The notes: generated from the sequence alone by a model not told the origin. Shown: positions 1 to 51,765, counted from the whole stretch's first letter. The stretch: DNA of 63,877 nt, filler included, from 6 parts of 6 records of this genome joined end to end with filler, not necessarily neighbours in it; one strand, 5' to 3'. Made by a program: numbers and translations.

Positions 1-172
1 GTCAATTATTGAGCGCATAGATTTAGGCTGCGTCAGAAATCTGATGCTTGTTCTTATTAGTTTGACAGAACCAGTAATCTTAACAAATTTGTGGATACAA
101 AGCGCCGTTAACTCAAGTGCCACGTACTGCTACCGTGGGAGTCCTACTTCTGCAGCCGGTGACGAAGTGTAG

Positions 173-760
173 TTAGCTACAGTCAACAAAATCCCTGATT
201 GCCGCTTTTGATTGTTCAGAAAAATGGGTGGCGAGGCTCTCCTTCGTAGTGGTGCCGTACATTCCTCTGAGTGCGGGCGTTGAAATCGCGAAGTACTGGA
301 TCGCCCCGATTAGCTTATAGAGGCCAGCGAGCACCTCCTCCCGCGAGACATCCTTCCAACGATTCGTCTCCCTCGTGACCGCGACCAACTTTTCGAGATA
401 GGGCTTCAAAGGCGACACTTTTGTAGCCGCGTCGGTATCGAGCAGCACGCGAATGACCAACCGCGCATCGTCTGGACGTGAGAGCGCACCGTTTGTATGG
501 GCTTCGAAATATGTGACGAGTCGCTGTTCGGGGGTAGGCGCATCGATGTCATCAATCTTCGACGATAACCGTTCCGCCAGGCGTGCTAGCACCTCGCCGT
601 AGAGCCGTTCCTTCGTTGGAAAGAAATACAACAGCGCCTGTTTGGTCACGCCAGCATCGTCCGCTAACGCGGCCAGAGTGACACCATGAAAGCCCCGCTC
701 AGCGAAACGATGCGTGGCAATCTCTAGGTATCTCCGTCGAGGATCAGTCTGATTGGCCAT
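173..760 (-). CDS. TetR/AcrR family transcriptional regulator
   Basis: N-terminal HTH 'IATHRFAERGFHGVTLAALADDAGVTKQALLYFFPTKERLY'; divergent from the crotonase gene. Confidence 0.93.
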   Translation of the reverse strand: MANQTDPRRRYLEIATHRFAERGFHGVTLAALADDAGVTKQALLYFFPTKERLYGEVLARLAERLSSKIDDIDAPTPEQRLVTYFEAHTNGALSRPDDARLVIRVLLDTDAATKVSPLKPYLEKLVAVTRETNRWKDVSREEVLAGLYKLIGAIQYFAISTPALRGMYGTTTKESLATHFSEQSKAAIRDFVDCS

Positions 761-799
761 TCTGGACCTCCTTTACCTCTACATAATGAAGCATTGACG

Positions 800-834
800 A
801 CTTACCAACTCATAAGTACTTACCATTTGGTAAG
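800..834. promoter_or_regulatory. Putative TetR operator(s) overlapping the crotonase promoter
   Basis: Palindrome CTTACCA-TT-TGGTAAG (819-834) and a degenerate copy ACTTACCAACTCATAAGT (800-817), directly after a TTGACG -35-like hexamer (794-799) in the tetR/crotonase intergenic region. Confidence 0.65.
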
Positions 835-855
835 GAAGCAGCGAGGGAGAGCAAA

Positions 856-1662
856 ATGTCTGTGGAAATTGATAAGAATGGAGACATTTGGACCATTATC
901 AACGACCGGTCCGATGCGCGGAACGCGGTTGATACCGATCATGCCAAGGCGCTGGTTTCAGCGTTTGATGCATTTGAAAACGGTTCTGCAAAGGTCGCTG
1001 TCTTTTGGGGGCGGGGCGAAAATTTCTGCGCTGGCTGGGACCTTAAACTGGCAGCATCCCTATCAAATGATATTAAGCGCGAAGCTTATTTTGACGAGCT
1101 AGCGTTTCCAATCGGGCATGGACCGACAGAACGTGGGCCGCTTGGTCCCTCACGCATGGAACTCAGCAAACCCGTCATCGGTGCTGTCGAAGGCGCCGCT
1201 GTCGCCGGAGGCATGGAGCTGGCACTTTGGTGCGATATTCGGGTGATGGCAGAGACTGCGTACTTGGGCGTTTATTGCCGCCGCTGGGGTATAACTCTGA
1301 TGGACGGCGGCGCGGTGAGATTGCCTCGGCTCGTCGGTCAGGGCAAGGCCTTGGAAATAGCGATGACCGGGCGCAAGGTTGAGGCAGAGGAATGCTACCG
1401 GATAGGATTGGCCGAGAAGGTTGTGCCGCATGGAGAGGCCCGCGCTGCCGCAGAGTCCATGGCTGCCGAGATCGCTCGTTTCCCGCAGGAGGCAGTGCGT
1501 GCTGACCGCCGTACAATTATCGAAACCCGCGGTATGTCCGTGCGCGACGCGATGAAGCTGGAATGGTCGAATGGGTTGGAGGCTATCCGTCGGGAAGGCA
1601 CCGCGGGTGCTGGTAGGTTCCGCGATGGTGCCGGGCGGCATGGTGACTTTGATAAAATCTAG
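856..1662 (+). CDS. Crotonase / enoyl-CoA hydratase family protein
   Basis: FCAGWDL, 'KPVIGAVEGAAVAGGMELALWCDIR' and 'GGAVRLPRLVG' crotonase motifs. Confidence 0.93.
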   Translation: MSVEIDKNGDIWTIINDRSDARNAVDTDHAKALVSAFDAFENGSAKVAVFWGRGENFCAGWDLKLAASLSNDIKREAYFDELAFPIGHGPTERGPLGPSRMELSKPVIGAVEGAAVAGGMELALWCDIRVMAETAYLGVYCRRWGITLMDGGAVRLPRLVGQGKALEIAMTGRKVEAEECYRIGLAEKVVPHGEARAAAESMAAEIARFPQEAVRADRRTIIETRGMSVRDAMKLEWSNGLEAIRREGTAGAGRFRDGAGRHGDFDKI

Positions 1663-1995
1663 TAGTTGGAGACCGGGCCTCAATTCCTTAGTGAACATTC
1701 TAGCAGGCGGTGTCGGATTAAACTTGCGCGAAGTGTACAGGGCAAATTTATAGCATCAGTGATGATCAAGCATCCCACATTTTGCTATATGAACCTTGGC
1801 CCTTTGAGTTTTAGGTGATAATGAGAATCTGACATGAATTAGAAGTAGTTAACAACGCACCAGTATCAATTGTAACATCTTAGGATGTCGTGTGATTGAT
1901 CATTAATTTGAATATCTGGTCTGGTGGCTTGCCAATGACCTCCGCAGCTAAGCGGTTAATTGACTGCAGATAAATATGATGTAGGTCGAACATAA

Positions 1996-2877
1996 ATGGA
2001 AAAGATGGCAAAAAAGTGTTTCTGGCGATTTGCACCATTCATTTTTGTGCTGTTCTGGTCTGGTGGATATACCTTTTCAAAACTTGGCTTGGCATATATC
2101 GAACCAATGACACTCCTGACAGTTCGGTATGGCATTGCAGTGTGCTTGCTATTACCATTCATTCTCTGGTTTTCTAAGCCTTGGCCGGTCTCTGTTCGGC
2201 ATTGGGTCGTCCTAGTGATAACTGGTTTCCTACTTCAGTGTGTATATTTTGGCTTGAGCTACCTTGCATTTAAAAAAGGTTTGAATGCTGGAACCGCTGC
2301 GGCCATCAATTCGCTTCAACCGATACTGGTTGCGACGCTGGGACCAATCTTCAATAGAGGTCGTGGTGGACTGCATCTCTGGGCCGGTCTAATTGTTGGG
2401 TTAATTGGCGTGGCTCTGGTGATTGTGTCAGGCAATTCACTCGGGCCAAGCCCTTGGGTGGCGGTTTTTCTCGCGTTAAGTGCGCTGGCCGGGATCACGG
2501 TTGCAACACTTTTTGAGAAGTGGCACGGGATAAAAACCGATCCCATGACTGGTGGTTTTGTGCAGTATTTTGTGGGTTTCGTCTTTCTCATGCCAGTAGC
2601 CATCGCGACTGAGACCATGGTTATCGTTTGGCACCCGGAATTAATAATTTCTTTAGCATACCTTGTGATTGCTAACTCAATCATCTCTGTAGGCATTTAT
2701 ATGGTTCTTCTGCAGCGGGGGGATGCCACTAGTATATCGTCACTATTCTATCTCGTTCCTCCACTCGCAATGTTTATAGCATGGGCTATCCTAGGAGAAG
2801 CCGTTACTAAACTTGCGCTAGCTGGCTTTGCGCTTTCGGCAGCAGGTGTCTACATCGTCATTAAGCGACCTTCTTAA
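1996..2877 (+). CDS. DMT/EamA family transporter
   Basis: About 10 hydrophobic segments; 'FVLFWSGGY', 'LQPILVA', 'SSLFYLVPP...AWAILGE' EamA patterns. Confidence 0.9.
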   Translation: MEKMAKKCFWRFAPFIFVLFWSGGYTFSKLGLAYIEPMTLLTVRYGIAVCLLLPFILWFSKPWPVSVRHWVVLVITGFLLQCVYFGLSYLAFKKGLNAGTAAAINSLQPILVATLGPIFNRGRGGLHLWAGLIVGLIGVALVIVSGNSLGPSPWVAVFLALSALAGITVATLFEKWHGIKTDPMTGGFVQYFVGFVFLMPVAIATETMVIVWHPELIISLAYLVIANSIISVGIYMVLLQRGDATSISSLFYLVPPLAMFIAWAILGEAVTKLALAGFALSAAGVYIVIKRPS

Positions 2878-3211
2878 GGCGAGATAAAGGCGTTTTTTAA
2901 GAATACATTGTATCTGAGCCTCGCTTCAAGGTCCCCGCGGGTACTGTCAGAAGAAACTAACTCGAGACGGGGAGGGCGGTTTTATATCCTCACCGTATGA
3001 CAAAACGCTCTCCATTTCGCTACATGAAACCTGGCCCGGGGTTACTGCACCGTTTTGTGTAGGCCCGTGGACCGGGAGCCAAGGGCCGTGAGCAGTGGAC
3101 CACGCACCGTCGACCTATTACCGGTGTTACCTGAGCTCAATTGGCGTTGATTAGTTTTGCTCGGGCCTCGGTCCGTCGACCAAGTCGCGCATGCCTAGCA
3201 AAGCCATCCAA

Positions 3212-3235
3212 TATGGGGTATAATAAAACCCCATA
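3212..3235. promoter_or_regulatory. Inverted repeat upstream of the HGGxSTG gene
   Basis: TATGGGGT-ataataaa-ACCCCATA: 8-bp arms overlapping a TATAAT-like hexamer, 12 nt before the start codon. Confidence 0.5.
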
Positions 3236-3247
3236 AACCGATGATAT

Positions 3248-3605
3248 GTGAGCACAAGGAAAGCTAATCCCAAACCATGGCTTTACGGCCCAAAGTGGCA
3301 GGGTCAGAGGTGCGAGGCCCGGACCCGTCGGGGGAACTTGTGCCAGCGTCCCGCCAGACTCCCTGTGGGCCGCTGTAAGCTCCATGGAGGGGCCTCCACC
3401 GGCCCTCCAGACCAAGGACGGCCTTGCGCGACTCACAGAGGCTAAAGTCAAGCACGGTCGCTTTACCAAAGACAAGCGAGCAGCGGCTAGACTCTTTGCT
3501 GAACAGGGGCGGCAGATGCGCGGCGAACTGAAGGAGCTGGAGACTTGGTTCGTGGACCACGGTCATCTGTCCAAGAATTGGCGCAAAGATTGGGACAAGC
3601 TCTGA
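3248..3605 (+). pseudogene. HGGxSTG-motif protein split by a +1 frameshift (real or sequencing error)
   Basis: Frame 1 gives CEARTRRG..CQRP...RCKLHGGASTGP. After one extra base near 3407 (GGCCCT-C-CAGACC) the other frame continues with the typical QTKDGLARLTEAKVKHGRFTK. Confidence 0.8.
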
Positions 3606-3813
3606 GACGATGATAGTAGGCTCATGGCATTGGACCAATTGCCATGGGGGTTACTATGGTCTTTCTTTTGGGCAAGCAGGGATGCCGCTTAGGGGTACCA
3701 ATTAAGCATGGGCCGTGGTCCTGGGACCATGGGCATATAATGTTGGCGTAGTAAATTCACTGGTGCCTAAATTCATTTGAGATTTTGAGCCGTGTGCATT
3801 GAGCTGACTTCAA

Positions 3814-4146
3814 TCATGAGCTGTATCTATTATGGAACCCTGCCATTTTTGGCCCAATTATAGCCAGGGGGATAACGCCCTTGCGCCGCCTAAATTCAAT
3901 GACATCCAGAGGAACTATTCGCTCTAAATGGTTCATAACCTTTTTGCGCCTGTCTAGTGTGGTGATACCGGCTGAATCCCAAATGGGTTTGCGCATTCCA
4001 ATCGTGTCGCCTGGGACAAGGCCTTGTATTTTTTGTTGTAGCAGCAATTCAAAAAATACAAGTAACCAGTCGGGGCAAACCTCAGTACAGGCCTTTAAGT
4101 CTAATGACAGGTACCTTTGTGGTGACTTGATCGGCCTAAATGCCAT
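3814..4146 (-). CDS. Hypothetical protein, possibly winged-helix DNA-binding, downstream of polA
   Basis: 110-aa ORF co-oriented with polA; C-terminal helix followed by a basic beta-hairpin-like segment 'EFRRRKGVIPLAII'. Confidence 0.55.
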   Translation of the reverse strand: MAFRPIKSPQRYLSLDLKACTEVCPDWLLVFFELLLQQKIQGLVPGDTIGMRKPIWDSAGITTLDRRKKVMNHLERIVPLDVIEFRRRKGVIPLAIIGPKMAGFHNRYSS

Positions 4147-4214
4147 CAGTATTATCCCTATTATATTATATATAAGTAAGAAAAGTAAGTTGCAGCGGGT
4201 GGGACGGTTCCGAC

Positions 4215-5990
4215 CTAACTATTGGCCGGAACCGGCCTTTGTTTGGCCCTGAGCATATCAAGCAGGGTCATTATTCTGCCGAACATTACCTCGCCCCTCT
4301 CGTCCATGTACCGATCTGGATAGCGCACGATCTCCGTGTCAACTCGGCAAGCGTGCCCCCCCATGACAATCTTCGATGCATCAACCATAAGTTTGGTGGT
4401 TCTAGCAATCACATCGATCTCTTGGGCGAGCGAAAACCGTACCAGAAACGCGTCGTGGATGGGACAACAGACTTCTATCCCAGCTTCCGTCAACATGCAG
4501 GCTGCAAGCCTCATGATATCGGCACCTGTTGATTGCATTGGCCAGTTCAGCAAACTTCTGTCGTTGGGGTCTGGATCCCTGCGCAGCTGGATCTTCCAGC
4601 CAAGCGGAGTAACCAGTGGCTCACCCATTAGGGCACGCATTTGATTAGCCTCCGCCCACTTCCAGAATACGCGATAGGTCATCTTGTGACTGTTGAGCAG
4701 TCCATTAGCCTCTACTTTGTGGATGCCTGCGCCCAGTGCAAGAGACTCTGCGCCCATTCCATAACCCACGCCTAAAACGATTTGTTTGCAGCGGCTTCGG
4801 ATCTCTTTATGGCTGGCCTTAGTGGCACCCGTTGGCGCAAGGCCAGCTTGGATCGCAAAGGCCATATATGGGTCACCAGACACGTATGCTTGCCACATGC
4901 TCTGATCACCACTTAAAGCGGCTGCAATTGCAATTTCCTGACTCGAATAATCAACATATGCTAAACCGTAACCCTCCTCAGGTTTAATGAGCGACCTCAA
5001 CCAAGCGGAATTGCCAAATATAGACTTGGTAGTTGATGGTTGATTGCGACTGGTTTTGGCGGCGAAGGGGCGAAGCAGTGTCCGGTTACGCCCATCTGCT
5101 CCGACATGTAGCTTCAGCGATCGCATCTGGGCTAGAGTGACCCGCAATTCGTGTAGCGATGCCACTTGGGTATGGGACTTGGACATTTGGCGAAAGGTAG
5201 CCTCGTCGAGTTTCAACTTGCCGTTATCAGTTTTGGGCCATTGGATAGCCTGTGCAGCGACCCAGCTCTCAAACTTAGCCTGTTTGAAGGTTGTACCCTC
5301 ATAGATGTCATAGTCCTGATCAACAGCTTCAATTAGATGGAGGCACAGTTCAGGCCAATACAGCATTAGCCCGGCGAACAGTTCTGTATCAACTGGCGTT
5401 CCAGAAAACTCCATCTTCGCTATCGCAACAGTGTAGCGGCCGCGCAGCAGAGCTTGGGTGAGGGCAAGTTGGTCCGTTGCAATCTTTGGCCACATTTCCC
5501 TAAAAAGGTTACCGGTAATTTCGACATCTTCGGCGCAGTATTCAAGAATGTCATTCTGTTGCTCAGGGGACCAGGGTCCGCCTGAGATTATCAGTTCGCG
5601 CATGTCAGTTTTGTAGTTGGCGTCCATTGCTGCGATGCCGAAGGCCTCCGCTGCCGCAAGCAGTCCGTATCCCGATCTCATGGTGTGCCCTGCAGCCCCA
5701 TTCGTCATCCGACGATATTCTGGGTAGAGATCAATGATGCGGGTAGGGAGGTCCCAACCAAGGCTCAGGAAGCAGTTCCATTCAGCCGAAGCGTAATAGC
5801 CAACGTATAAATACTCTGGCCCAAGTGGGAGGGGGCATTGTGCCCCCTCTGCGACCCACAAACGTGTCTGGGTGCCCTTTTTCAAAGATTTTGCAACCAG
5901 ACAAATGGGACGCTGCCGCTCCCCGTCTGCAGCGACAAACTCAAAGTCGAGAGCGATTACATCTTTATAGAGGTCCAGATAATCCATCAT
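4215..5990 (-). CDS. Family A DNA polymerase with 3'-5' exonuclease, no 5'-3' exonuclease
   Basis: ExoI 'ALDFEF', ExoIII 'YCAEDV', motif A 'DYSSQEIAIAAALSGD', motif B 'RSRCKQIVLGVGYGMG', motif C 'PIHDAF'. Confidence 0.93.
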   Translation of the reverse strand: MMDYLDLYKDVIALDFEFVAADGERQRPICLVAKSLKKGTQTRLWVAEGAQCPLPLGPEYLYVGYYASAEWNCFLSLGWDLPTRIIDLYPEYRRMTNGAAGHTMRSGYGLLAAAEAFGIAAMDANYKTDMRELIISGGPWSPEQQNDILEYCAEDVEITGNLFREMWPKIATDQLALTQALLRGRYTVAIAKMEFSGTPVDTELFAGLMLYWPELCLHLIEAVDQDYDIYEGTTFKQAKFESWVAAQAIQWPKTDNGKLKLDEATFRQMSKSHTQVASLHELRVTLAQMRSLKLHVGADGRNRTLLRPFAAKTSRNQPSTTKSIFGNSAWLRSLIKPEEGYGLAYVDYSSQEIAIAAALSGDQSMWQAYVSGDPYMAFAIQAGLAPTGATKASHKEIRSRCKQIVLGVGYGMGAESLALGAGIHKVEANGLLNSHKMTYRVFWKWAEANQMRALMGEPLVTPLGWKIQLRRDPDPNDRSLLNWPMQSTGADIMRLAACMLTEAGIEVCCPIHDAFLVRFSLAQEIDVIARTTKLMVDASKIVMGGHACRVDTEIVRYPDRYMDERGEVMFGRIMTLLDMLRAKQRPVPANS

Positions 5991-6577
5991 TCGTACCCCA
6001 ATAACCGCTGGATCACGGGATGGTTCATATCGCGAATAACGCGCTCCTCGCCAAAGCCAAGCTTGATAAGTTCACTAAGTGAAAAGTCAGGCCAGTCTGG
6101 CTCACTTTCAGAGGAACTGGTGTGAATAGTGTAGGCTCCCTCAGCCATATTGGCTGACATGCGCACCCACTTCGTTTCCGACAACCGTAGCGCTTCTAAC
6201 GCACTGGTATTCCAAAGATTGGGACGTTGGAACTCGTCCTCGGCTTGGCGGGGGGCCAGCCATAAGAAGGGGGTACCCATCTTGTCTATGCATAACACGA
6301 GTAATTTGGGTTTGGTTTCCTCGACGAGGGCACCGGTAACAGCGGGCATTACAAGGTACTCTTCCTTCATCATCCCACTATTATACTCAATGATGTTAAC
6401 TGGCAGTCTGTAAGTGGGGTCCGAGTGTGACCTGAAAAAGGCCGACTTCTTGGGCTTGCCAGTTAGTATGTGAGTGAACTCCCGTCGAATACCGTCACCG
6501 CTGCCATCCAGGGTATTTGATGCGCGAAACTGCGTGGGATCGAATGGGTCGGGTGTCTTTTTCTTATCGTCAGTCAT
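5987..6577 (-). CDS. Conserved hypothetical protein translationally coupled to polA (possible ssDNA-binding accessory)
   Basis: 196-aa ORF with SD GAGGT; its stop overlaps the polA start (ATGA). Confidence 0.75.
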   Translation of the reverse strand: MTDDKKKTPDPFDPTQFRASNTLDGSGDGIRREFTHILTGKPKKSAFFRSHSDPTYRLPVNIIEYNSGMMKEEYLVMPAVTGALVEETKPKLLVLCIDKMGTPFLWLAPRQAEDEFQRPNLWNTSALEALRLSETKWVRMSANMAEGAYTIHTSSSESEPDWPDFSLSELIKLGFGEERVIRDMNHPVIQRLLGYE

Positions 6578-6683
6578 TTTAAGTACCTCGTACTTGAGGC
6601 GCTTTAGCCGATCAGGTATAGTTTGGGGGGGGTAACTGCTACATTACACGCCAATCTAGCCCACGGCCTTCGCACCGTGGGTT

Positions 6684-6911
6684 TTACTTTGGCTTGTTCT
6701 GCCGAGGGTTATCAGATCGTGATGCAAGTTTACTCTCAACCCAGGCGCTCACTTCGGACTGAAGCCAGGCAACTCTATTCCCACCAAGGCGGACCCTTTG
6801 TGGGAACTCGCCCGCGCGCTCTAGACGCCATATGTGGCTGGCGGAGTAAGGTACAATTTTCTGCACTTGTTGCAGCATGATAAATTTCTCTAATGGGGTG
6901 TGATCGTCCAT
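6684..6911 (-). CDS. alpA: AlpA family regulator / excisionase
   Basis: 'MLQQVQKIVPYSASHIWRLERAGEFPQRVRLGGNRVAWLQSEVSAWV' AlpA HTH signature; start set at the ATG at 6911 behind an AAGGA SD. Confidence 0.9.
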   Translation of the reverse strand: MDDHTPLEKFIMLQQVQKIVPYSASHIWRLERAGEFPQRVRLGGNRVAWLQSEVSAWVESKLASRSDNPRQNKPK

Positions 6912-7064
6912 GGTATTCCTTTCACGTTTATAGACATGAAAACACATGGCCCAGATCAGGCATTACAGGCATCGGGGGAAACTCCCCCAGTTTTTAAATA
7001 AAAATAATTCTACGAGAATTATGCGATAAATATATGAAAATAAACGCTTTATTATTTTGCAGTG

Positions 7065-7697
7065 TCACATCTTTCTTTGTCTTTTGATTGCTTCGTCTAC
7101 GGACGCATTAATACCTAATGCGTTGAATAAGACTTCGAGGATTCTATGAAATGGGAGGTCGCCGTCGGTGTCCCAGCGACGTCTATAGCTTTCCCCTGCT
7201 GCACTGACGTAGGCTGCCGCGACAAAGGAGACTAAAACGCTCAAACGATCTTTAGAGGGGCGACCTTCTTTAGACGGGCCAATCAGGCGATAACCGACTC
7301 TGTCTGATAATCTCTTTCCGCTCACTGCAATCGTCTGACGGATGTCTTGGGCCAATACATTTATTCCGGCCTTATCTTCTTTATTAGGTAACGTCGGAAG
7401 CGGTTTTGCCCCTTGCAGAAGGTTCGACCCTTCGAGCAAACTCTTTGTAGTAGTACTGACATTTTTAAGTATGTTTAGCAAAGTGTAGTTGGGCTTCTGA
7501 CATACCCGATTTATTTCCCTTAACTCTTTCGCAACCATGCTTGGTTCGTCTAAATCCAAATAAATCTCTATGGCAGAATATGCTTGGTCTAGAAATTGGT
7601 CGAAGGTATCTTCGGGAATGAGCTCTCTCACAAGCTCCATGGCTTGCAATAGTTCTTCTCGGCTAAGAGCTGTTCTAGGCTTGGGCCCCCTATTCAT
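7065..7697 (-). CDS. Hypothetical protein between integrase and alpA
   Basis: 210-aa ORF overlapping the integrase stop; contains a GRPS motif. Confidence 0.7.
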   Translation of the reverse strand: MNRGPKPRTALSREELLQAMELVRELIPEDTFDQFLDQAYSAIEIYLDLDEPSMVAKELREINRVCQKPNYTLLNILKNVSTTTKSLLEGSNLLQGAKPLPTLPNKEDKAGINVLAQDIRQTIAVSGKRLSDRVGYRLIGPSKEGRPSKDRLSVLVSFVAAAYVSAAGESYRRRWDTDGDLPFHRILEVLFNALGINASVDEAIKRQRKM

Positions 7698-7818
7698 CTG
7701 CGACTAAATCCTGAATGAATGTACCCCACTTTTGCAAGGCTACTCGCCGTTCTTCAAGATATTCCCCGTGCTGGTAGATGGCGGCAACACCGCGTACCTG
7801 TCCGGTCACATGGTTCAA
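7690..7818 (-). CDS. Tyrosine recombinase / P4-like integrase, C-terminal fragment (truncated by contig end)
   Basis: Manual translation LNHVTGQVRGVAAIYQHGEYLEERRVALQKWGTFIQDLVADE*, matching box II (LNH...catalytic Y) and the P4-type tail; not in the ORF track. Confidence 0.85.
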   Translation of the reverse strand: MNHVTGQVRGVAAIYQHGEYLEERRVALQKWGTFIQDLVADE

Positions 7819-7918
7819 NNNNNNNNNNNNNNNNNNNNNNNNNNNNNNNNNNNNNNNNNNNNTTAATTAATTAANNNNNNNNNNNNNNNNNNNNNNNNNN
7901 NNNNNNNNNNNNNNNNNN
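7819..7918. other. Artificial contig spacer (N44-TTAATTAATTAA-N44)
   Basis: N runs around a linker with stops in all six frames; identical spacer occurs five times. Confidence 0.98.
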
Positions 7919-8579
7919 CCACTTCCATTTCATATTCTTTCCAACCCAAGAGGCTTTCATCAATCAAGATTTGGCTGACTGGGGAAGCGTCCAGGCCGGT
8001 TTTGCAAAAATGCTCGTAGTCCTCTCGGTTATACGCCACGCCGCCGCCTGTCCCGCCCAATGTAAAGGCCGGGCGAATAATCGCGGGTAGGCCGATGTCA
8101 TCAAGCGCGGCCATACATTCTTCCATCGTCTCAGCGATGGTGGCGCGTGGATTTTCAAGGCCAAGCCGATCCATGGCTTCGCGAAAGAGTTTGCGGTCTT
8201 CGGCCATTTCAATCGCCGGGCGCTTGGCGCCAATCATCTCTACGCCAAACTTGTCCAAGACGCCCATTTCCTCAAGCGCAAGCGAGGTGTTCAGGCCGGT
8301 CTGTCCACCCATCGTCGGCAGCAGCGCGTCAGGGCGCTCAATCTCAATGATCTTTGCGACGGTCTCAGGTGTGATGGGTTCGATGTAGGTGGCATCGGCC
8401 ATGTCCGGATCGGTCATGATGGTGGCAGGATTTGAATTGACCAAAATCACGCGGTAGCCTTCTTCGCGCAGTGCCTTGCAGGCTTGGGCGCCGGAGTAAT
8501 CGAACTCACAGGCTTGACCGATGACGATGGGGCCCGCTCCAATAATCATAATGGATTTAATGTCAGTTCTCTTCGGCAT
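7919..8579 (-). CDS. carB: Carbamoyl-phosphate synthase large subunit, 5' part (truncated)
   Basis: [41 protein letters not shown]. Confidence 0.98.
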
Positions 8580-8718
8580 GAATCTATCCTTCAGTGTCGG
8601 GCGCAAACTGTCCTGCCTTATAGGGAAGGCGGTCATGGGTGCAAGGGGCTTTGTGATATTCAAGGCCAGTTTGCGACGCCCAGAGTCCGAGATTGCCACA
8701 AGCCGGTCGTGCCGGGCC

Positions 8719-9192
8719 CTAGGGCAGGGGCAATTCGGTTGTATCTTTCAGCTCTTCCATGACGAAGCTGGCACTGACATCTGCCAATTCGATACGCGAA
8801 ATAAGACGCTGATAAAGATCATCATAGGCTTGCACGTCGCGGACGCGGGCTTTGATCAAATAGTCTTGATGACCCGAAGTGCGATAGGCCGCTTGTACCT
8901 GCGGCAGGCTGCGAATGACCTTCGTGAATTGATCTGCCCAATCTTTGCTGTGGCTACGCACAGAGATTGACACAAAGACAGTAAGACCAAGCCCAATCTT
9001 TTGCGCATCCAGAAGCGCCACACGCGCCTTCAAAAGGCCACTATCTTGCAGGCGCTTGACCCGCCGCCAAACCGCATTGCGTGACAGGTGGACCGCTTCG
9101 GACAATTCCTCCAAGGATTGCGCAGAATTACGTTGCATTTGTTGCAATATAGCGCGGTCATAATCATCATATGTTACGAATTTATCTGACAT
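8719..9192 (-). CDS. Lrp/AsnC family transcriptional regulator
   Basis: '[37 protein letters not shown]' HTH plus RAM domain. Confidence 0.93.
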
Positions 9193-9294
9193 TGCGAAAT
9201 TTTATCACAGTAAATGGGCATAACAAAGAAAATTTGGGAAAAAAGTTGAGCGCGGATAGTTTACACTGTCATCAGGATTTTTTGGAGCTTTGAC

Positions 9295-9534
9295 ATGACC
9301 CCTTCACCGAATTATTTTAACGCGCATTTGAGAGAGGTTGACGAGAGCTACGGGCGGCATTTTCTGCACGCGGGCTATTACTTTGTGATGCTCTTGGCGG
9401 CTGCGATCTGTGCTCTGATCCATGCGATCCTACCCTTTTTATTTGAAAAGACCTCCAGCCAAATTATCCTCAAGCTCTACACCAAAATGACGGCCAGAAA
9501 GCTGTTTGACGCGCAATCTTCCTCTCAGGGCTGA
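9295..9534 (+). CDS. Small membrane protein (DUF6356-like)
   Basis: 'HLREVDESYGRHFLHA...HAILPFLFEKTSS' pattern; divergent from lrp. Confidence 0.7.
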   Translation: MTPSPNYFNAHLREVDESYGRHFLHAGYYFVMLLAAAICALIHAILPFLFEKTSSQIILKLYTKMTARKLFDAQSSSQG

Positions 9535-9629
9535 ATTTTTACCCTGGGCAGGGCAGAAATCCGCGGATTGGCTTGACTTTACGCGCCTGTCGGGATGTAT
9601 CAGCGCGACCGCTTGAAGGAGCCTGACCC

Positions 9630-11405
9630 ATGCATGCCTATCGCAGCCACACCTGTGCCGACTTGACCATCAAAAATGTTGGCGAGACCATTCGCCTTTC
9701 GGGATGGGTGCATCGCGTGCGCGACCATGGCGGTTTGCTCTTCATCGATCTGCGCGATCATTATGGGATGACACAGGTGCTTTGTGACCCGGACAGCCCG
9801 GTGTTCAAAGAGGTGGAAAAACTGCGTAGCGAATGGTGCATTCGGATTGATGGCACGGTCAAAGCCCGCGACGCGGAATTGGTGAACCCCAAAATTCCAA
9901 CCGGAGAGATTGAGGTGTTCATCCGCGACCTGGAGGTTTTGGGCGCTGCGGAGGAGCTGCCCTTGATGGTGTTTGGCGAGCAAGAATATCCCGAAGAGAC
10001 ACGATTGAAGTACCGCTATCTCGATTTGCGCCGGGAGAAGCTGCAAAAGAACATGAAAATGCGCTCCGATGTTGTCGCCTCGATGCGCCGCCGGATGTGG
10101 GATCAAGGGTTTCGCGAGTTTCAAACGCCGATCATCACCGCCTCTAGCCCCGAGGGCGCGCGGGACTTTTTGGTGCCATCGCGCTTGCACCCGGGTAAAT
10201 TTTACGCGCTGCCACAAGCGCCGCAGCAGTTCAAACAGCTGATTATGGTCTCGGGCTATGATAAATACTTTCAGATCGCCCCGTGTTTTCGCGATGAAGA
10301 TCCCCGCGCGGATCGCTCGCCAACAGATTTCTATCAGCTTGATTTAGAAATGTCTTTTGTCGATCAGCAAGATATTTTTGACACAATACAACCTGTCTTG
10401 ACCGGCGTATTCGAAGAGTTTGGCGGCGGTCGCAAAGTGGATCAAACATGGGAGCAAATCAGCTATCGTGATGCGGCCCTTTGGTATGGCAGCGACAAAC
10501 CAGATCTGCGCAACCCGATTAAGATGCAAGTGGTTTCTGAGCATTTTGCTGGCTCTGGTTTTGCCATTTTCGCAAAGCTCTTGGAGCAAGAGGGCACGGA
10601 AATTCGCGCTATTCCTGCTCCGAAAGGTGGCAGCAGAAAATTCTGTGACCGCATGAATGCTTTTGCCCAAAAAGAAGGCCTGCCTGGCATGGGCTATATC
10701 TTCTGGCGCGACCAAGGCGAAGGCATGGAGGCCGCAGGGCCTTTGGCCAAAAACATAGGTCCCGAACGTACAGAGGCCATTCGCCAGCAATTGGGGCTTG
10801 GCGTCGGCGATGCGGCATTCTTCTTGGGCGGTAAACCGAAAGCCTTTGAGGGGGTTGCTGGTAAGGCCCGGATGGTGATTGGCGATGAATTGGGCTTGAC
10901 GGATAAAGAGCGTTTCGCCTTTGCCTGGATCGTTGATTTCCCGATCTATGAGAAAGATGCCGAAACCGGCAAGATTGATTTTGAACACAATCCATTTTCG
11001 ATGCCACAAGGCGGCATGGAGGCGCTTGAGGGTGATCCTTTGCAGGTGTTGGGTTATCAATATGATCTGGCCTGCAATGGCTATGAGCTGCTCAGCGGTG
11101 CGATTCGGAATCACCGCCCAGAGATCATGTTCAAAGCCTTTGAAATTGCTGGTTATGGCAAGGAAGAGGTTGAAAAGCGGTTCGGCGGCATGGTCAATGC
11201 CTTCCAATACGGGGCCCCGCCGCACGGTGGTTGTGCCGCTGGCATCGACCGAATTGTGATGCTCTTGGCTGACGAGGCAAATATTCGCGAAGTGATCATG
11301 TTCCCGATGAATCAGCGGGCAGAAGATCTGATGATGGCCGCCCCGTCTGAACCAATGAATGAGCAACTGCGGGAATTGTCGCTTCGGGTTATCGCTCCGG
11401 AATAA
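9630..11405 (+). CDS. aspS: Aspartate--tRNA ligase
   Basis: MHAYRSHTC, '[13 protein letters not shown]', '[16 protein letters not shown]', '[14 protein letters not shown]'. Confidence 0.98.
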
Positions 11406-11462
11406 CGCTTATCGGTTAGGGCCGGCTGGATGGGCGCGGGTGGCTTGCGCCCTCTGGCCCCC

Positions 11463-12158
11463 TCAGACCGCTATTTTCTCGGCCAAAAAATCCGTCAAGG
11501 CAGCGCGGAGATCGGATCTGTTCTGCGTGGTGGAATATCGCTCGGCTGCTTGTTCCAGCGTAGGATCTCAGGCGGTCCGGGCCACGCCAGAGATAAAGGC
11601 CGCAAGATATCCCGATTGCGCGTCCTCCTTGTCGTTTTTGTTGAGCAATTCCAACGCATGGTTCAAATCCTCCTGCAGGGCCCGTTGGTCCGCCTCAAAT
11701 GCCAAATCTGGCAAGAGACGAATGTCCATTGGGCGACGATGATTTGGGAGATTCATCAAGATTGCACTTTGAAATCCGGCAATGGAATTGAGGGGCTTTT
11801 CGATGAAGCTATCCGCGCCGGCCTTCATCGCAGCGGTGGCGCGGCTTGGATCTGCGGAAAGACCAATGATTGTCTGGGTGCGCGGAGTGGCTTGCGCCAG
11901 CTCTGAGATCAGCTCAGCACCATCCCCATCTGGCAGGCCCATATCAACAATGGCCACATCCGGACGATAAATTCTAAGGTGCCTCCGCGCGCTCTCCATA
12001 CAGTCAGCGCGTCTTAATCGTGCGCCAGAGGTGATGCACATCAAGCGCACGGCCTCGCCCGCCGTGAGGCTGTCTTCCACCAACAGCACCATCAACCCAT
12101 GCAATGGTCTCCGGCTGGTGGGTTTGAGTGAATGTAATGTGTTCGACATCCCGGTCAT
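11463..12158 (-). CDS. Response regulator receiver protein with an apparent in-frame TGA at 11568-11570
   Basis: 'VLLVEDS...VAIVDMGLPDGDG...FIEKP'; the frame continues 34 codons beyond the TGA. Confidence 0.8.
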
Positions 12159-12278
12159 GATCGCCCCCTTATTTTCAGATCATGGCCCCGTTTTGCGCTC
12201 AAAGACTCTAATGCTTGGTTAATGCAGCTTGCCTTATTTGGGGGTACGGCCTTACAAGACGGAAAACAGGAGATGAAA

Positions 12279-12683
12279 ATGATTGGACGGCTGAATCACG
12301 TGGCGATTGCAGTGCCTGATTTGCAGGCGGCTGCGGCACAATATGAATCAACTTTGGGCGCAAAAGTTGGCCCGCCACAAGATGAACCCGATCACGGTGT
12401 GACGGTTGTTTTCATCGAGTTGCCAAACACAAAGATTGAGCTGCTGTTCCCGCTGGGTGAGGGCTCTCCGATCCAGAATTTCTTGGATAAAAACCCGTCT
12501 GGCGGCATTCATCACATCTGTTATGAGGTAGACGACATCCTGGAGGCACGCGCGCAATTGCAAAGCCAGGGAGCGCGGGTATTGGGCAGCGGTGAGCCAA
12601 AAATTGGCGCCCACGGCAAGCCCGTGCTCTTTTTGCATCCCAAGGACTTCACGGGCTGCCTCATCGAGCTAGAACAAGTCTAA
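12279..12683 (+). CDS. mce: Methylmalonyl-CoA epimerase
   Basis: MIGRLNHVAIAVPDL...GGIHHICYEV...GAHGKPVLFLHPKD...ELEQV. Confidence 0.95.
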   Translation: MIGRLNHVAIAVPDLQAAAAQYESTLGAKVGPPQDEPDHGVTVVFIELPNTKIELLFPLGEGSPIQNFLDKNPSGGIHHICYEVDDILEARAQLQSQGARVLGSGEPKIGAHGKPVLFLHPKDFTGCLIELEQV

Positions 12684-12710: not shown

Positions 12711-13004
12711 ATGCCGATCACCTCCGCGCTCGTACTTTTTGCCGTCATTTGGTTTTTGACCTTATTCATTGTCTTGCCGCTGCGCTTGCAGACTCAAGGG
12801 GATGTCGGGGAAATCGAACCCGGCACCCATGCGGGCAGCCCTGAAAATCCACAAATGAAAAAGCGTTTCATGGTGACAACCGTTGTCGCCCTGGTGATTT
12901 GGGCAGTTGTTGCGGGAACGATCATCAGCGGCGTGATTTCAGTGCGCGACATTGACTGGTTCAACCGGATGGCAACGCCCGAAGTCTCTCGAACTGATGG
13001 GTGA
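12711..13004 (+). CDS. DUF1467 family membrane protein
   Basis: 'ITSALVLFAVIWF...PLRLQTQGDVGEIEPGTHAGSP'; usual position after mce in Rhodobacteraceae. Confidence 0.85.
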   Translation: MPITSALVLFAVIWFLTLFIVLPLRLQTQGDVGEIEPGTHAGSPENPQMKKRFMVTTVVALVIWAVVAGTIISGVISVRDIDWFNRMATPEVSRTDG

Positions 13005-13659: not shown

Positions 13660-14222
13660 TCATGAATCCATTGGGTTATAGCGGCAACATCAGGACGCGG
13701 ACGGTCGGGCATTTGGGCCGGGCCGGTCCCGATGTGAACAATTCCGGCGACATGTTCATGCGGTGCAAGTGCCAAACCTTCGGTGCAAAACTCCCGGTTG
13801 TGCGAGGCCCAACCAGAAAGCCAATTGGCGCCCCAACCGCTGGCCAAAGCTGCGTTCAGCAGCGATAGGCAGACAGCACCGGCAGAATAGGTTTGTTCGA
13901 TTTGTGGAAACTTGTCGCAGGGTTTCGGACTGGCAACGACCACGACGGCCAATTGCCCGGTTTCAAACTGCTGGCTTGCTTTGTCTGCATCAACCACTTC
14001 TGGTCCGGCGGCCGCAGCCAAGTTGCGGGCCAACACGCCCAGGCGGCGCAATGCGGCTTGCTCAAGAACAATGAACCGCCAAGGCTCCAACTTGCCATGA
14101 TCTGGCGTGCGTGCAGCGACGCAAAGGAGCGCCTCAAGCGTGTCTCTGTCAGGAACTGGCGCGGTTAAGATTTTCGCTGGGCGAGAGCGGCGGGTTTTCA
14201 AAAAGGTCAATGCATCTGTCAT
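13656..14222 (-). CDS. Nitroreductase family protein (YdjA-like)
   Basis: 'RRSRP', 'RTPDHGKLEPWRF', 'GWGANWLSG'. Confidence 0.92.
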   Translation of the reverse strand: MTDALTFLKTRRSRPAKILTAPVPDRDTLEALLCVAARTPDHGKLEPWRFIVLEQAALRRLGVLARNLAAAAGPEVVDADKASQQFETGQLAVVVVASPKPCDKFPQIEQTYSAGAVCLSLLNAALASGWGANWLSGWASHNREFCTEGLALAPHEHVAGIVHIGTGPAQMPDRPRPDVAAITQWIHE

Positions 14223-14272
14223 GCGCTATGATGTGGGGCATTGCTGGGCGTTTCGCAAGGGTGGGCGGTGAT

Positions 14273-15370
14273 TTAGGGTGCATGGAATGCGGCCAAATCA
14301 TCGACATATGTGGCGAGGAACTTAGCAAACTGGCCACGCGGCTGGCGCTTGGTGAAAGTCTCCTCAAAGGGATCAGGAGCTTCAATCGTGCTGTCGGCCA
14401 AGGTGGAGATGGTGGCATGGCCGCAAAAGGGGACGTAGACCTCTGAATACCCGCCCTCATGCACCAAAACCAAACGGCCGTCACAGAGCTCCGCCGCGCT
14501 GGCTTTGATGGCAGCCGTCATGGCGCTGAAGGTCTGGGCTGTGGCAAACATGCGGGACAAGGGATCAATGGCTGCGGCATCATAGCCACAAGCCACAACG
14601 ATCAAATCTGGTCTGAACCGTTCTAAGGCAGGCTGAACGATACGTTTCATAACCTGCATATAGGTGGCATGGCCCGCTCCGGGCGGCAGGGGGATGTTGA
14701 TATTGCTTTTATCCACGCCGCGGGTATCGGCGTCTCCGCTGTCTAGCGGATAATTTCTTTCTTGATGGATTGAGAGGGTTAGAACGGCTGGGTCGTCGAT
14801 GTAAATCGCCTCTGTTCCGTTCCCGTGATGCACATCCCAATCCAAAACGGCCACTTTCAAATCCGGCTGCTGGCTGCGGGCGGCCTCGATCGCCACAGCG
14901 ATATTGGCCAAAAGGCAAAATCCATTTGGCCAATCTGGCAAGCAATGATGCCCCGGAGGGCGCGACAGAGCATAGGCATTGCGCACACGCCCTGCCATCA
15001 CATCCGCCACCGCCCGGCAGGCGAGACCCGTGGACAGCGCCGCCTGCTCATAGCCGCCATGACCGAAAGGCACGCGGAGGCCAAGCTCGCCGCCGCTTCC
15101 CTTTGAGGCCTCCTCAAAAGCGTCGAGATAGGCGCTGGGGTGCACCCGTAACAGTGCTTCGCGACTGGCCATATCCGCACTCTGGCTGGCGAGGGTCCGG
15201 GTCAGCCCGGTGACGTCCATCAGATTTTTCAACCGGCGCTTGGTTTCGGGATTTTCGGGAATGCCGCCAGCCGCGAGGGGCTGCACCAAGCCGCCCACGG
15301 GCTGGGTGAAGGCATAATTGCCGCCAGAAAACCAAAAACAGCGCTCATCCCAATAAAATCCGGTGGTCAT
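14273..15370 (-). CDS. Class II histone deacetylase family amidohydrolase
   Basis: 'RPPGHH', 'GFC', 'DWDVHHGNGT', 'GYDA', 'HEGGY'; start set at MTTGFYWDE. Confidence 0.93.
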   Translation of the reverse strand: MTTGFYWDERCFWFSGGNYAFTQPVGGLVQPLAAGGIPENPETKRRLKNLMDVTGLTRTLASQSADMASREALLRVHPSAYLDAFEEASKGSGGELGLRVPFGHGGYEQAALSTGLACRAVADVMAGRVRNAYALSRPPGHHCLPDWPNGFCLLANIAVAIEAARSQQPDLKVAVLDWDVHHGNGTEAIYIDDPAVLTLSIHQERNYPLDSGDADTRGVDKSNINIPLPPGAGHATYMQVMKRIVQPALERFRPDLIVVACGYDAAAIDPLSRMFATAQTFSAMTAAIKASAAELCDGRLVLVHEGGYSEVYVPFCGHATISTLADSTIEAPDPFEETFTKRQPRGQFAKFLATYVDDLAAFHAP

Positions 15371-16925: not shown

Positions 16926-17025
16926 NNNNNNNNNNNNNNNNNNNNNNNNNNNNNNNNNNNNNNNNNNNNTTAATTAATTAANNNNNNNNNNNNNNNNNNN
17001 NNNNNNNNNNNNNNNNNNNNNNNNN
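16926..17025. other. Artificial contig spacer
   Basis: N44-TTAATTAATTAA-N44. Confidence 0.98.
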
Positions 17026-51689: not shown

Positions 51690-51765
51690 TGGTGGAGGTA
51701 AGCGGGATCGAACCGCTGACCCCTTGCATGCCATGCAAGTGCTCTCCCAGCTGAGCTATACCCCC
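51690..51765 (-). tRNA. tRNA-Ala (GGC)
   Basis: Reverse complement GGGGGTATAGCTCAGCTGGGAGAGCACTTGCATGGCATGCAAGGGGTCAGCGGTTCGATCCCGCTTACCTCCACCA: 76 nt, cloverleaf, CCA end. Confidence 0.96.

Follow-up and report, generated by a model that had tools for sequence, protein, structure and literature searches.

A Family A DNA Polymerase with a Predicted OB-Fold Partner in the Conserved Core of a Widespread Small Mobile Island

How might a small integrative element be copied if it brings its own DNA polymerase and neither a primase nor a helicase? The question is raised by positions 3814..7818 of the window, as the whole analysed stretch of DNA is called here (63,877 nt, filler included; 6 parts of 6 records). 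There, a family A DNA polymerase (PolA) and two small proteins are the only replication genes of an integrase/AlpA island, which suggests a minimal way to copy mobile DNA without primase or helicase.

Gene Order, Conservation, and Integration Sites

The window consists of contigs joined by five linkers of the type N...TTAATTAATTAA...N. One of these joints (N run, TTAATTAATTAA, N run; 7819..7919), read from the sequence as an assembly artefact and not as biology, begins directly behind the locus, and the element is therefore truncated by the assembly end at 7818. Six genes lie at the positions below this point, all on the minus strand: an integrase stub, a 210-aa ORF, AlpA, a 196-aa ORF, PolA, and a 110-aa ORF. 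The run converges on a plus-strand HGGxSTG gene. The start of the 210-aa ORF is overlapped by the integrase stop, and the start of PolA overlaps the stop of the 196-aa ORF as ATGA (5987-5990). The six co-oriented genes and the ATGA coupling had been described in a first-pass annotation and are all confirmed, with the qualification that merely 42 codons of the integrase are present.

This stub (7690..7818, minus strand) is what the contig end has left of a P4-type tyrosine integrase, namely the C-terminal 42 codons and the stop. At 88% identity it matches residues 344-385 of the full-length 385-aa integrase of the related locus L001, a protein with the domains Phage_integrase, Arm-DNA-bind_3, and Phage_int_M. 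The AlpA-type excisionase/regulator (6684..6947, minus strand; 87 aa) was assigned by PF05930 (1.5e-12) and phrog_2790 (1.2e-16). Between the two lies a variable slot, occupied here by the 210-aa protein (7065..7697, minus strand). No family was found for it in Pfam, PHROG, NCBIfam, or PADLOC, its ESM Atlas matches are unnamed clusters only, and homologues occur in L001 and L006; in other loci the slot holds unrelated proteins of 145-313 aa. The 210-aa gene of L001 itself carries frameshifts. These are probably assembly errors: all four of four metagenome runs contradict L001 at 11 single-base indels (8272-9000). Compared with L001, all five comparable genes of the window are intact and under purifying selection, with dN/dS values of 0.07-0.18 (integrase stub 0.18, PolA 0.15, 110-aa protein 0.13, 196-aa protein 0.075).

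The claim that the 196-aa protein, PolA, and the small protein form a conserved triad was borne out by a collection of 80 related loci, in which the three usually have a tyrosine integrase and AlpA as neighbours, and a tRNA is often adjacent. Counted over 81 sources, the 196-aa protein is encoded directly upstream of PolA in 66; the remaining 15 are cut by contig ends (9) or hold PolA fragments only (6). This gene order recurs in dozens of unrelated genomes and is far beyond chance. Among the 80 loci, the integrase cluster is present in 41 and the AlpA cluster in 19. Serine recombinases are sporadic only (L006 and L060). A tRNA adjoins the integrase in nine loci, and clear att repeats bound elements of 9.2 kb (L071) and 8.1 kb (L077); the relatives have the appearance of integrative elements and integrate at tRNA sites. 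What is seen at this locus is a single copy, truncated by the contig, of a small mobile island that is very widespread.

The rarity of other replication genes in this family also agrees with what had been proposed. Large neighbours were defined as proteins of at least 280 aa, and 132 of 139 were scanned. They include a single primase (a Prim-Pol in L071) and no replicative helicase of the DnaB, D5, or MCM type, and no helicase cluster is recurrent. Capsid or tail genes are likewise not recurrent across the 80 loci.

The Polymerase and Its Two Small Neighbours

PolA (4215..5990, minus strand; 591 aa) combines a 3'-5' exonuclease with a polymerase domain and lacks the 5' nuclease (PF00476, 5e-21; phrog_17, 2.7e-41). 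Motif residues were judged in a 16-sequence alignment (A1), their choice being the analyst's reading. In this alignment the exonuclease residues D15, Y151, and D155 are invariant and E17 is nearly so, while D347, K402, L406, Y410, H512, and D513 are invariant in the polymerase domain, whose catalytic motifs thus appear intact. Motif B reads K402-Q-I-V-L406-G-V-G-Y410-G. Its position B3, which we take to be that of Phe762 in E. coli Pol I, is occupied by Leu, as in the CHEAP subfamily. Motif C is HDA, compared with HDE in E. coli Pol I.

The window PolA belongs to CHEAP, with which it shares the exonuclease-plus-polymerase layout without 5' nuclease, the length (~580-600 aa), the Leu in place of the Phe of Pol I, and the range across Proteobacteria and Methanomicrobia. 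It can also be followed motif by motif along the CHEAP reference of I. dechloratans in the supplement of PMC10201439, a collinearity judged by eye and not by an alignment score; DFEF, YYASAE, ALLRGRYT, DGRNR, RNQPS, AYVD.S.QE, AAALSGD, and SGDPY are shared within the first 400 residues, and a near relative is present in the data set of that study. CHEAP is cluster #15 of Czernecki et al. 2023, where active polymerase and exonuclease are described and the SCCmec polymerase CCPol is given as the nearest subfamily (PMC10201439). That paper regards CHEAP as an auxiliary polymerase of the cell for which no partners are known, and its assays of the I. dechloratans enzyme used primers only; the word "integrase" is absent from the main text. 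At the locus studied here, by contrast, this gene forms the core of an integrase/AlpA island, along with genes for a conserved OB-fold partner and for a winged helix.

The partner, translationally coupled to PolA, is the 196-aa protein (5987..6577, minus strand). Its AlphaFold2 (AF2) model (pLDDT 90) contains a b1-b2-b3-a-b4-b5 OB fold at residues 47-109, as the first-pass annotation had guessed. The best fold matches are T4 and RB69 gp32, with Z scores of 4.5 and 4.1 that lie below the tool's caution line of 8; phage SSB-like models also match (E 8e-4). A profile search found no solved relative of the family, which comprises 5964 cluster representatives at E<=1e-3. The OB fold of the model thus bears a weak resemblance to gp32 and SSBs. 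The predicted complex of this protein with PolA scores 0.62, a value also reached by 51 of 78 solved complexes and by 2 of 108 mismatched pairs; the best control scores 0.00. In this prediction the partner is modelled poorly (pLDDT 33-35), contacts agree between runs in at least 44%, and the interface consists solely of the N-terminal peptide of the 196-aa protein, which would bind the exonuclease domain of PolA.

The 110-aa protein (3814..4146, minus strand) is a winged helix by its AF2 model (pLDDT 83, topology H-S-H-H-S-S) and by Foldseek, whose best matches are ORC/Cdc6 winged helices, GntR, and MarR (E ~0.04-0.1); a wHTH had been suspected here. A small-protein HMM, which links reciprocally to the group of this protein, matches 62 ORFs, nearly all directly after PolA. 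The protein is a candidate origin or regulatory binder. No iterons, hairpins, or significant structure were found next to its gene, so that the idea of hairpin priming finds no support.

A Candidate Replication Module and Its Known Counterparts

The best explanation, to which about an even chance is given, is that the triad serves a compact integrative element of ~5-9 kb as its PolA-SSB replication module, one that has no helicase; the larger part of this element would lie at 2938-7818 of the window. The tyrosine integrase, together with AlpA, would excise and move the element, and the conserved core would act as its three-gene replication module. A PDPFD-type peptide at the N-terminus of the OB-fold protein may tether it to the exonuclease domain of PolA, and by analogy with CCPol-MP the pair could hold a single-stranded template, start chains de novo, and elongate them. 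The lack of a separate primase would be explained because the pair would start DNA chains itself. The winged-helix protein may act as a marker of the start site or as a regulator of the module. As the element has no helicase of its own, it would be copied by strand displacement (rolling circle) or with the help of a host helicase. As to excision, Logan contigs from four marine bulk-metagenome runs yield only ambiguous back-joints between two IS6-end copies, and among 72,556 plasmid records no match to this PolA type covers at least 80% of the query. The window copy seems to have been rearranged at its integrase-distal end by an IS6 element.

The closest precedent comes from SCCmec and other Bacillota islands. 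CCPol and the OB-fold protein MP act together as a primase, and primases made up of PolA and an OB-fold protein have been described from mobile elements of Bacillota (Bebel 2020, PMC7581432; Rice 2023, PMC10061031), the group to which all published examples belong. The likeness lies in an integrative element that pairs a family A polymerase with a small OB-fold protein, and in the predicted contact of the partner with the exonuclease-domain region. The differences are numerous. Here the partner gene precedes that of the polymerase, the reverse of the CCPol-MP order; the exonuclease domain, truncated in CCPol, is complete and, by its motifs, apparently active; and the partner, of ~190 aa, has an additional domain at its C-terminus and a docking peptide at its N-terminus. 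Moreover, the Cch2-type helicase is absent, a tyrosine integrase with AlpA replaces the large serine recombinase, a winged-helix protein follows PolA, and the hosts are mainly Pseudomonadota, Acidobacteriota, and archaea instead of Bacillota.

Satellites of the P4-like, PICI, and PICMI types share the succession of integrase, small variable gene, AlpA, and replication slot, as well as tRNA-site integration, which is seen here in the relatives. Unlike in these satellites, the slot is filled by PolA and an OB-fold partner instead of a primase-helicase, and no capsid-size, packaging, or interference genes are recognised. Pipolins and casposons are self-synthesising elements with family B polymerases. 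The present element resembles them as an integrative element with its own, possibly self-priming, DNA polymerase, but the polymerase is of family A and any priming would need a separate OB-fold subunit.

The element possibly belongs to the PolA-bearing virion-packaged marine elements (VEIMEs). Data S5 of Eppley 2022 assigns a COG0749 DNA polymerase to 117 VEIMEs, of which 78 are in module 6, 13 in module 8, and 2 in module 2, modules that are associated with Pelagibacter/Alphaproteobacteria (PMC9618062). VEIME monomers of <5 kb to 16.8 kb are packaged as ~8-17 copies and are described there as having no capsid genes (PMC9618062). Likened by these published descriptions, both are small marine elements with a tyrosine integrase, AlpA, a family A polymerase, and alphaproteobacterial hosts; VEIMEs are characterised by their presence as concatemers in virus particles. 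Since CHEAP, the Bacillota PolA-OB primases, and PolA-bearing marine VEIMEs had already been published, the first-pass proposal of a distinct class holds only in part: the triad in an integrase/AlpA island stands, while the polymerase subfamily had its name (PMC10201439).

A bolder joint reading, judged less likely than not, is that the partner and PolA form a self-sufficient two-subunit replicase, both priming and strand-displacing, and that CHEAP enzymes are the replicases of a vast mobilome. If true, no smaller self-replicating integrative element would be known than such a circle of 5-9 kb, carrying only integrase, AlpA, the pair, and an origin-binding winged-helix protein. CHEAP, now filed as cellular, would then serve a bacterial and archaeal mobilome with ~6000 partner-protein clusters, the PolA-bearing virion-packaged ocean elements included.

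Competing Explanations

An unlikely alternative retains the PolA-OB replication module of the best explanation and adds helper dependence: the element would be a marine phage satellite like the VEIMEs that excises upon infection by a helper phage, and the long head-to-tail concatemers made by the PolA-OB pair through rolling circle would fill full-size helper capsids. The COG0749 polymerases of the 117 VEIMEs and the int-alpA layout reminiscent of P4 and PICI satellites are in its favour, and the element is common in marine metagenomes, where 17 runs contain half or more of its words; the 20 runs with element words come from 13 studies. One IMG/VR contig (L081) carries a related PolA and a small wHTH protein beside TerS and TerL. 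Against this, IMG/VR holds only two true relatives among 2.9 million contigs, and no PolA match covering at least 80% of the query was found among 50,697 phage records (best identity 26%). Furthermore, no terminase, pac-site, or interference gene is recurrent in the 80 loci, no genes for helper exploitation (capsid redirection, small terminase, interference) were recognised in the window or among recurrent neighbours, several conserved genes lacking an assigned function, and members of the family are also found in genomes from soil and acid mines and in those of archaea.

The triad could instead benefit the host, with the polymerase, its ssDNA-binding partner, and the regulator serving in anti-phage defence or DNA repair and not as a replicon, which is considered quite unlikely. 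CHEAP was named a cellular auxiliary polymerase (PMC10201439), and Rice 2023 raises defence as a possible role of PolA-SSB pairs (PMC10061031). Defence cargo is often nearby in the islands (type I RM, GmrSD, AbiEii, HipA), and purifying selection persists even though the far end of the copy looks rearranged. Nevertheless, this cargo varies among loci whereas the triad is the invariant core, placed where satellites keep their replication genes, and the sole defence-library match, PADLOC RTasPolA, is generic: a canonical Pol I of Azospirillum scores 122 bits against 76 for the window PolA. It is highly improbable that the module turns incoming ssDNA from transformation, conjugation, or vesicles into duplex for the integrase. 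Such second-strand synthesis, suggested for the PolA-SSB primases of SCC (PMC10061031), needs a primase-polymerase and an SSB without helicase, in agreement with the gene set seen; however, its proteins would need to be produced ahead of any duplex DNA, and the element is without transfer genes.

The integrase-distal end brings up a last alternative, held to be very unlikely, namely a decaying remnant that lost this end through IS6 activity and whose genes are becoming pseudogenes. Homology between the window and L001 stops exactly at the terminus of an IS6-family insertion sequence, of which the window retains a fragment (2938..3037) matching the IS ends in L001, where the IS copies encode an IS6 transposase (235-aa ORF; NF033587, 196 bits). 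Beyond it, the two carry unrelated EamA transporters. Both L001 and the window lack the 5' half of tRNA-Thr that would be needed at the far end to restore the tRNA. In addition, the convergent HGGxSTG gene (3248..3605, plus strand), whose position had been noted correctly, is not intact, being split into two frames by a one-base change: the c5 HMM matches the ORFs 3248-3445 (2.6e-20) and 3384-3605 (1.1e-26). This frameshift may be an assembly error, as are probably those in L001. The selection on the five intact genes argues against decay, as does the recurrence of identical or near-identical PolA proteins on many metagenome contigs. An HGGxSTG gene follows the small protein in 12 other loci, and intact homologues match NCBIfam NF041373 with 55-59 bits at a cut-off of 29.

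Gene layout and the closest relative

The window is several separate contigs joined end to end: a linker scan found five linkers, N runs around TTAATTAATTAA, at 7819-7919 and with cores at 16970, 39331, 47378 and 58494, and any feature that apparently spans one of these points is an artefact. The first contig piece stops at 7818, where the sequence passes into N. ORF calls and Pfam searches confirmed on it the six-gene co-oriented run converging on an HGGxSTG gene that the first-pass annotation had described, save that the integrase is a stub. The run, entirely on the minus strand, comprises this integrase C-terminal stub (the last 42 codons, 7690-7818), a 210-aa ORF (7065-7697) whose start overlaps the integrase stop, AlpA (87 aa, 6684-6947; PF05930, 1.5e-12), a 196-aa ORF (5987-6577), the family A polymerase PolA (591 aa, 4215-5990; DNA_pol_A, 5e-21), which shares an ATGA overlap with the 196-aa ORF, and a 110-aa ORF (3814-4146) with a sub-threshold Pfam match only. 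The integrase is a mere stub because the assembly ends there, and its remainder was not found elsewhere within the window. The next contig opens within a gene (7920-8699, minus strand), unrelated to the element, with a translation that resembles the N-terminus of a carbamoyl-phosphate synthase large subunit.

Neither the 196-aa nor the 210-aa protein has a Pfam match. Searches of the element proteins against PHROGs, NCBIfam and PADLOC added nothing specific, and the ESM Atlas placed the 210-aa protein in unnamed clusters only. Rfam gave no RNA family in window 1-12000 (E<=0.1), and the element region holds no tRNA, the sole tRNA of the window lying at 51690. Near the 110-aa gene, a search for origin-like features found no iterons, and the folding of 3606-3813 gave z = -0.11. 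An 8-bp inverted repeat, CGGTTCCG / CGGAACCG, can be read by eye across the PolA stop codon (4196-4235), adjoining an AT-rich 68-nt spacer ahead of the 110-aa gene.

The closest relative among the loci used for comparison, L001, is a Planktomarina MAG contig that matches window 2964-7818 in a single alignment at 84.6% nucleotide identity. Its integrase is full (385 aa), with the domains Arm-DNA-bind_3, Phage_int_M and Phage_integrase. Comparison of the window with L001 gives dN/dS values of 0.075-0.18 for five genes (integrase stub, AlpA, 196-aa protein, PolA, 110-aa protein); selection is therefore preserving them. The 210-aa gene of L001 is in three pieces; since the contigs of all four marine runs differ from L001 8272-9000 by 11 single-base indels, this break is probably an assembly error. 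The HGGxSTG-domain gene (3248-3605, convergent to the run) is split in the window by a one-base frame change: reading through requires a change of frame just past the HGGASTGP motif, and homologues are intact in L001 and 12 other loci. The frame change may be an assembly error or reflect a real pseudogene.

The polymerase and its two accessory proteins

Published work already covers both this polymerase subfamily and the PolA-SSB principle. CCPol, the family A polymerase of the SCCmec CCPol-MP pair, requires the bound small protein MP for de novo synthesis of DNA primers, and the helicase Cch2 completes the module (Bebel 2020, PMC7581432). MP is an OB fold; in a later study, related PolA-SSB pairs are placed on Bacillota islands only, generally accompanied by a helicase and large serine recombinases, and replication, second-strand synthesis and defence are discussed as possible roles (Rice 2023, PMC10061031). 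Unlike the CCPol-MP module with its Cch2, the window-type elements are helicase-less. PolA cluster #15, named "CHEAP", was reported from Proteobacteria and Methanomicrobia and carries a Leu at motif B position B3; it is no substitute for Pol I, no other subfamily is closer to CCPol, and it has no known partners (Czernecki 2023, PMC10201439). Primer-extension assays described there showed very high polymerase and exonuclease activity for the CHEAP enzyme of I. dechloratans. In the window PolA, the CHEAP Leu is present (L406, invariant in the PolA alignment A1); the protein is collinear with the I. dechloratans sequence in the supplement of PMC10201439, and the data set of that paper includes a near relative of it. 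On these sequence features it is placed in CHEAP.

For the 196-aa partner, the first-pass annotation had raised the possibility of an OB fold, and the AlphaFold model (pLDDT 90, from the 57-sequence alignment A2) bears this out in topology: residues 47-109 show the element order of an OB fold, strand-strand-strand-helix-strand-strand, ahead of an alpha/beta C-terminal part. Matches to SSB-like proteins are weak. Foldseek found no match in the PDB at E<=0.001, and the family profile no relative among PDB sequences. An all-against-all aligner ranked T4 gp32 first (Z 4.5, 136 residues), with RB69 gp32 at Z 4.1, both under the aligner's safe level, and then the OB folds of BRCA2, HIN and RPA; a viral model library returned phage proteins, several of them named SSB, from E 8e-4 upward. 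The positions conserved in A2 are mainly aromatic or hydrophobic, together with one invariant His and no obvious acidic catalytic set. A profile search across 1.84 billion representatives yielded 5964 relatives at E<=1e-3 (4473 at 1e-10), and the best 150 of the 5964 are all stand-alone proteins of 185-340 aa. The 110-aa protein, annotated as a possible wHTH, was likewise modelled as a classic winged helix (pLDDT 83, alignment A3), its best matches, weak ones, being winged helices of ORC/Cdc6, GntR and MarR.

The predicted complex of partner and PolA scored 0.62 (median of three runs) versus 0.00 in all three controls, a mark reached by 51 of 78 solved complexes and by 2 of 108 mismatched pairs. 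The runs, which used no alignments and in which the partner's own pLDDT was only 33-35, share at least 44% of their contacts. On the partner side, the confident contacts involve residues 8-19, a PDPFD...F/L-R peptide conserved across A2; on the PolA side, they involve residues 7-8, 58-59, 83-84, 174-185, 460-464 and 541-544, mainly in the exonuclease domain. The prediction supports a putative binding of the partner to PolA.

Conservation, gene neighbourhood and integration

Alignment A1 led to 80 loci on one-genome-per-species contigs, in all of which ORFs were called and searched with the window proteins. Their bacterial sources are Alpha-, Beta- and Gammaproteobacteria, Acidobacteriota, Nitrospinota, Planctomycetota, Actinomycetota, Neobacillus and Akkermansia, and the archaeal ones Thermoplasmatota, Methanosarcinales and Methanoregula. 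The 196-aa family lies immediately upstream of PolA in 66 of 81 sources (the 80 loci and the window); in the 15 others, PolA is cut by a contig end (9) or present as fragments only (6). Clustering of selected ORFs within 6 kb of PolA returned as recurrent families, beside PolA and its partner, an integrase of ~396 aa (41 loci), a ~128-aa protein on the same strand directly after PolA (36 loci), AlpA (19 loci) and a convergent HGGxSTG protein (12 loci). The proposed conservation of partner, PolA and winged-helix protein next to integrase and AlpA is thus upheld. The several small-protein clusters form one superfamily by HMM: the model of one cluster downstream of PolA (c3) matches 62 ORFs and, at 0.004, the Marivivens homologue of the 110-aa protein, while a model of the 110-aa protein matches 11 superfamily members at 3e-5 to 6e-3. 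Between integrase and AlpA there is always a single protein of 145-313 aa; these proteins belong to no family and share little similarity with one another. Marivivens geojensis (L002, L004) carries the triad twice, on separate contigs, and in one case the type I RM genes HsdM and HsdS follow it.

The first-pass annotation had also seen the triad as filling the replication slot without primase or helicase. Across the loci, the stretch from 5 kb upstream of PolA to 4 kb downstream contains 139 neighbours with a length of 280 aa or more, of which 132 were scanned; four of the seven left out fall in clusters covered via another member or had been scanned earlier. A single Prim-Pol was found (L071:7515-9158, 548 aa), upstream of the partner gene and within the att repeats of the element, L071 being the only locus with both an att-bounded element and a Prim-Pol. 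DnaB-, D5- and MCM-type helicases were absent from the 132. The other large neighbours comprise genes of host metabolism, transposases, additional recombinases and cargo of defence type, such as type I RM, GmrSD, AbiEii and HipA, and no capsid or tail genes recur around PolA in the loci. Full-length relatives thus do not regularly carry a primase-helicase or phage structural genes.

A tRNA gene adjoins the integrase in nine loci. In two of them, clear att repeats delimit the element, namely 41 nt of tRNA-Arg (~9.2 kb, L071) and 20 nt of tRNA-Val (~8.1 kb, L077); the tRNA-repeat search gave no standout repeat in the other seven. L001 has a tRNA 3' half (6966-7021, minus strand) 150 nt upstream of its integrase. 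Contigs of the marine run X8 match L001 to 7021 and then diverge into a tRNA 5' half, and the integrase-side junction is therefore 7021/7022. By the anticodon loop, the two halves together read as tRNA-Thr(UGU). The matching 5' half is absent from L001 and from the window, and homology between the two stops at an 80-90-nt fragment matching the terminus of IS copies whose 235-aa ORF encodes an IS6 transposase. Synteny of the flanking EamA genes was ruled out, the two transporters being unrelated. Given the IS6 terminus, the missing tRNA half and the unrelated flanks, the integrase-distal end of the window/L001 lineage seems to have been remodelled by IS6. The IS-end repeat was discarded as an att site in view of the displaced tRNA-Thr half beside the L001 integrase and the IS6 transposase match.

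IS6-family ends at window 1-72 and 2938-3037 bracket a segment with TetR, enoyl-CoA hydratase and EamA genes. In L001, partial IS6 copies (3733-4547, 5930-6372 and 14126-14548) bracket the PolA element in direct orientation, similarly to an IS26-type pseudo-compound transposon. The IS-end regions reach contig depths of thousands in marine metagenomes. Back-joints from ~12960-12987 to ~6291-6325 in metagenome contigs of the runs X5 and X11 were rejected as junctions of excised circles because they link two IS6-end copies.

Candidate roles and environmental occurrence

We favour, with about even confidence, the reading of a compact integrative element that replicates through a module related to the PolA-SSB primases but lacking a helicase. 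An OB-fold subunit would be tethered to a proofreading CHEAP polymerase, and the winged-helix protein would be a candidate site-specific binder. A helper-dependent satellite life style with packaging as concatemers is a live variant of this reading, albeit a rather doubtful one. A marine study reports a COG0749 DNA polymerase in 117 virion-encapsidated integrative elements packaged as concatemers (Eppley 2022, PMC9618062). Neither the plasmid nor the phage records searched contain the window PolA type; IMG/VR holds two relatives, one beside TerS/TerL and one beside a prophage. In the former (L081, 6157-12419), a PolA of 42% identity adjoins the TerS and TerL genes together with a small winged-helix gene, likewise related, and the OB-fold partner is absent. 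Such a contig could represent a phage that donated the module or acquired it.

A role as defence or repair cargo appears quite unlikely. Defence-type genes do occur among the large neighbours; the PADLOC match to RTasPolA, from which a defence reading was considered, was dismissed as generic because a canonical Pol I control scores higher, and that name was not found in the limited literature collection searched. Mere decay of the window copy, where the split HGGxSTG frame stands beside five genes under selection, is improbable. Conversion of the entry strand, akin to the second-strand synthesis discussed for PolA-SSB pairs, is highly improbable.

No description of the partner-PolA-winged-helix triad on tyrosine-integrase islands was found in that same limited collection. 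To judge by it, what is unpublished is the architecture, along with the partner family, the lack of a helicase, the huge taxonomic range and the way the literatures connect. If the favoured reading is true, it joins three literatures, those on a polymerase subfamily regarded as cellular and without partners, on PolA-SSB primases reported from Bacillota alone and with a helicase, and on uncharacterised PolA-bearing marine virion-packaged elements. Non-canonical priming by a family A polymerase would then reach most bacterial phyla and some archaea, a minimal replicon architecture without primase and helicase would be defined, and compact, highly active proofreading polymerase-SSB pairs would become available to study. 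For a 200-aa protein family that has thousands of members but lacks a Pfam model, this reading supplies the first testable function.

The L001 element occurs in 20 marine metagenome runs from 13 studies, with at least half of its words present in 17 runs. Contigs break near 12270-12440, and their summed depth is lower over the core (8-50) than over the flanks (35-270), in keeping with carriage of the element by part of the population, although contig depths are a poor measure. The HGGxSTG gene and 600 nt beyond it show a summed depth 3-40x that of the PolA core in metagenome contigs, and this gene may therefore also occur in other contexts.
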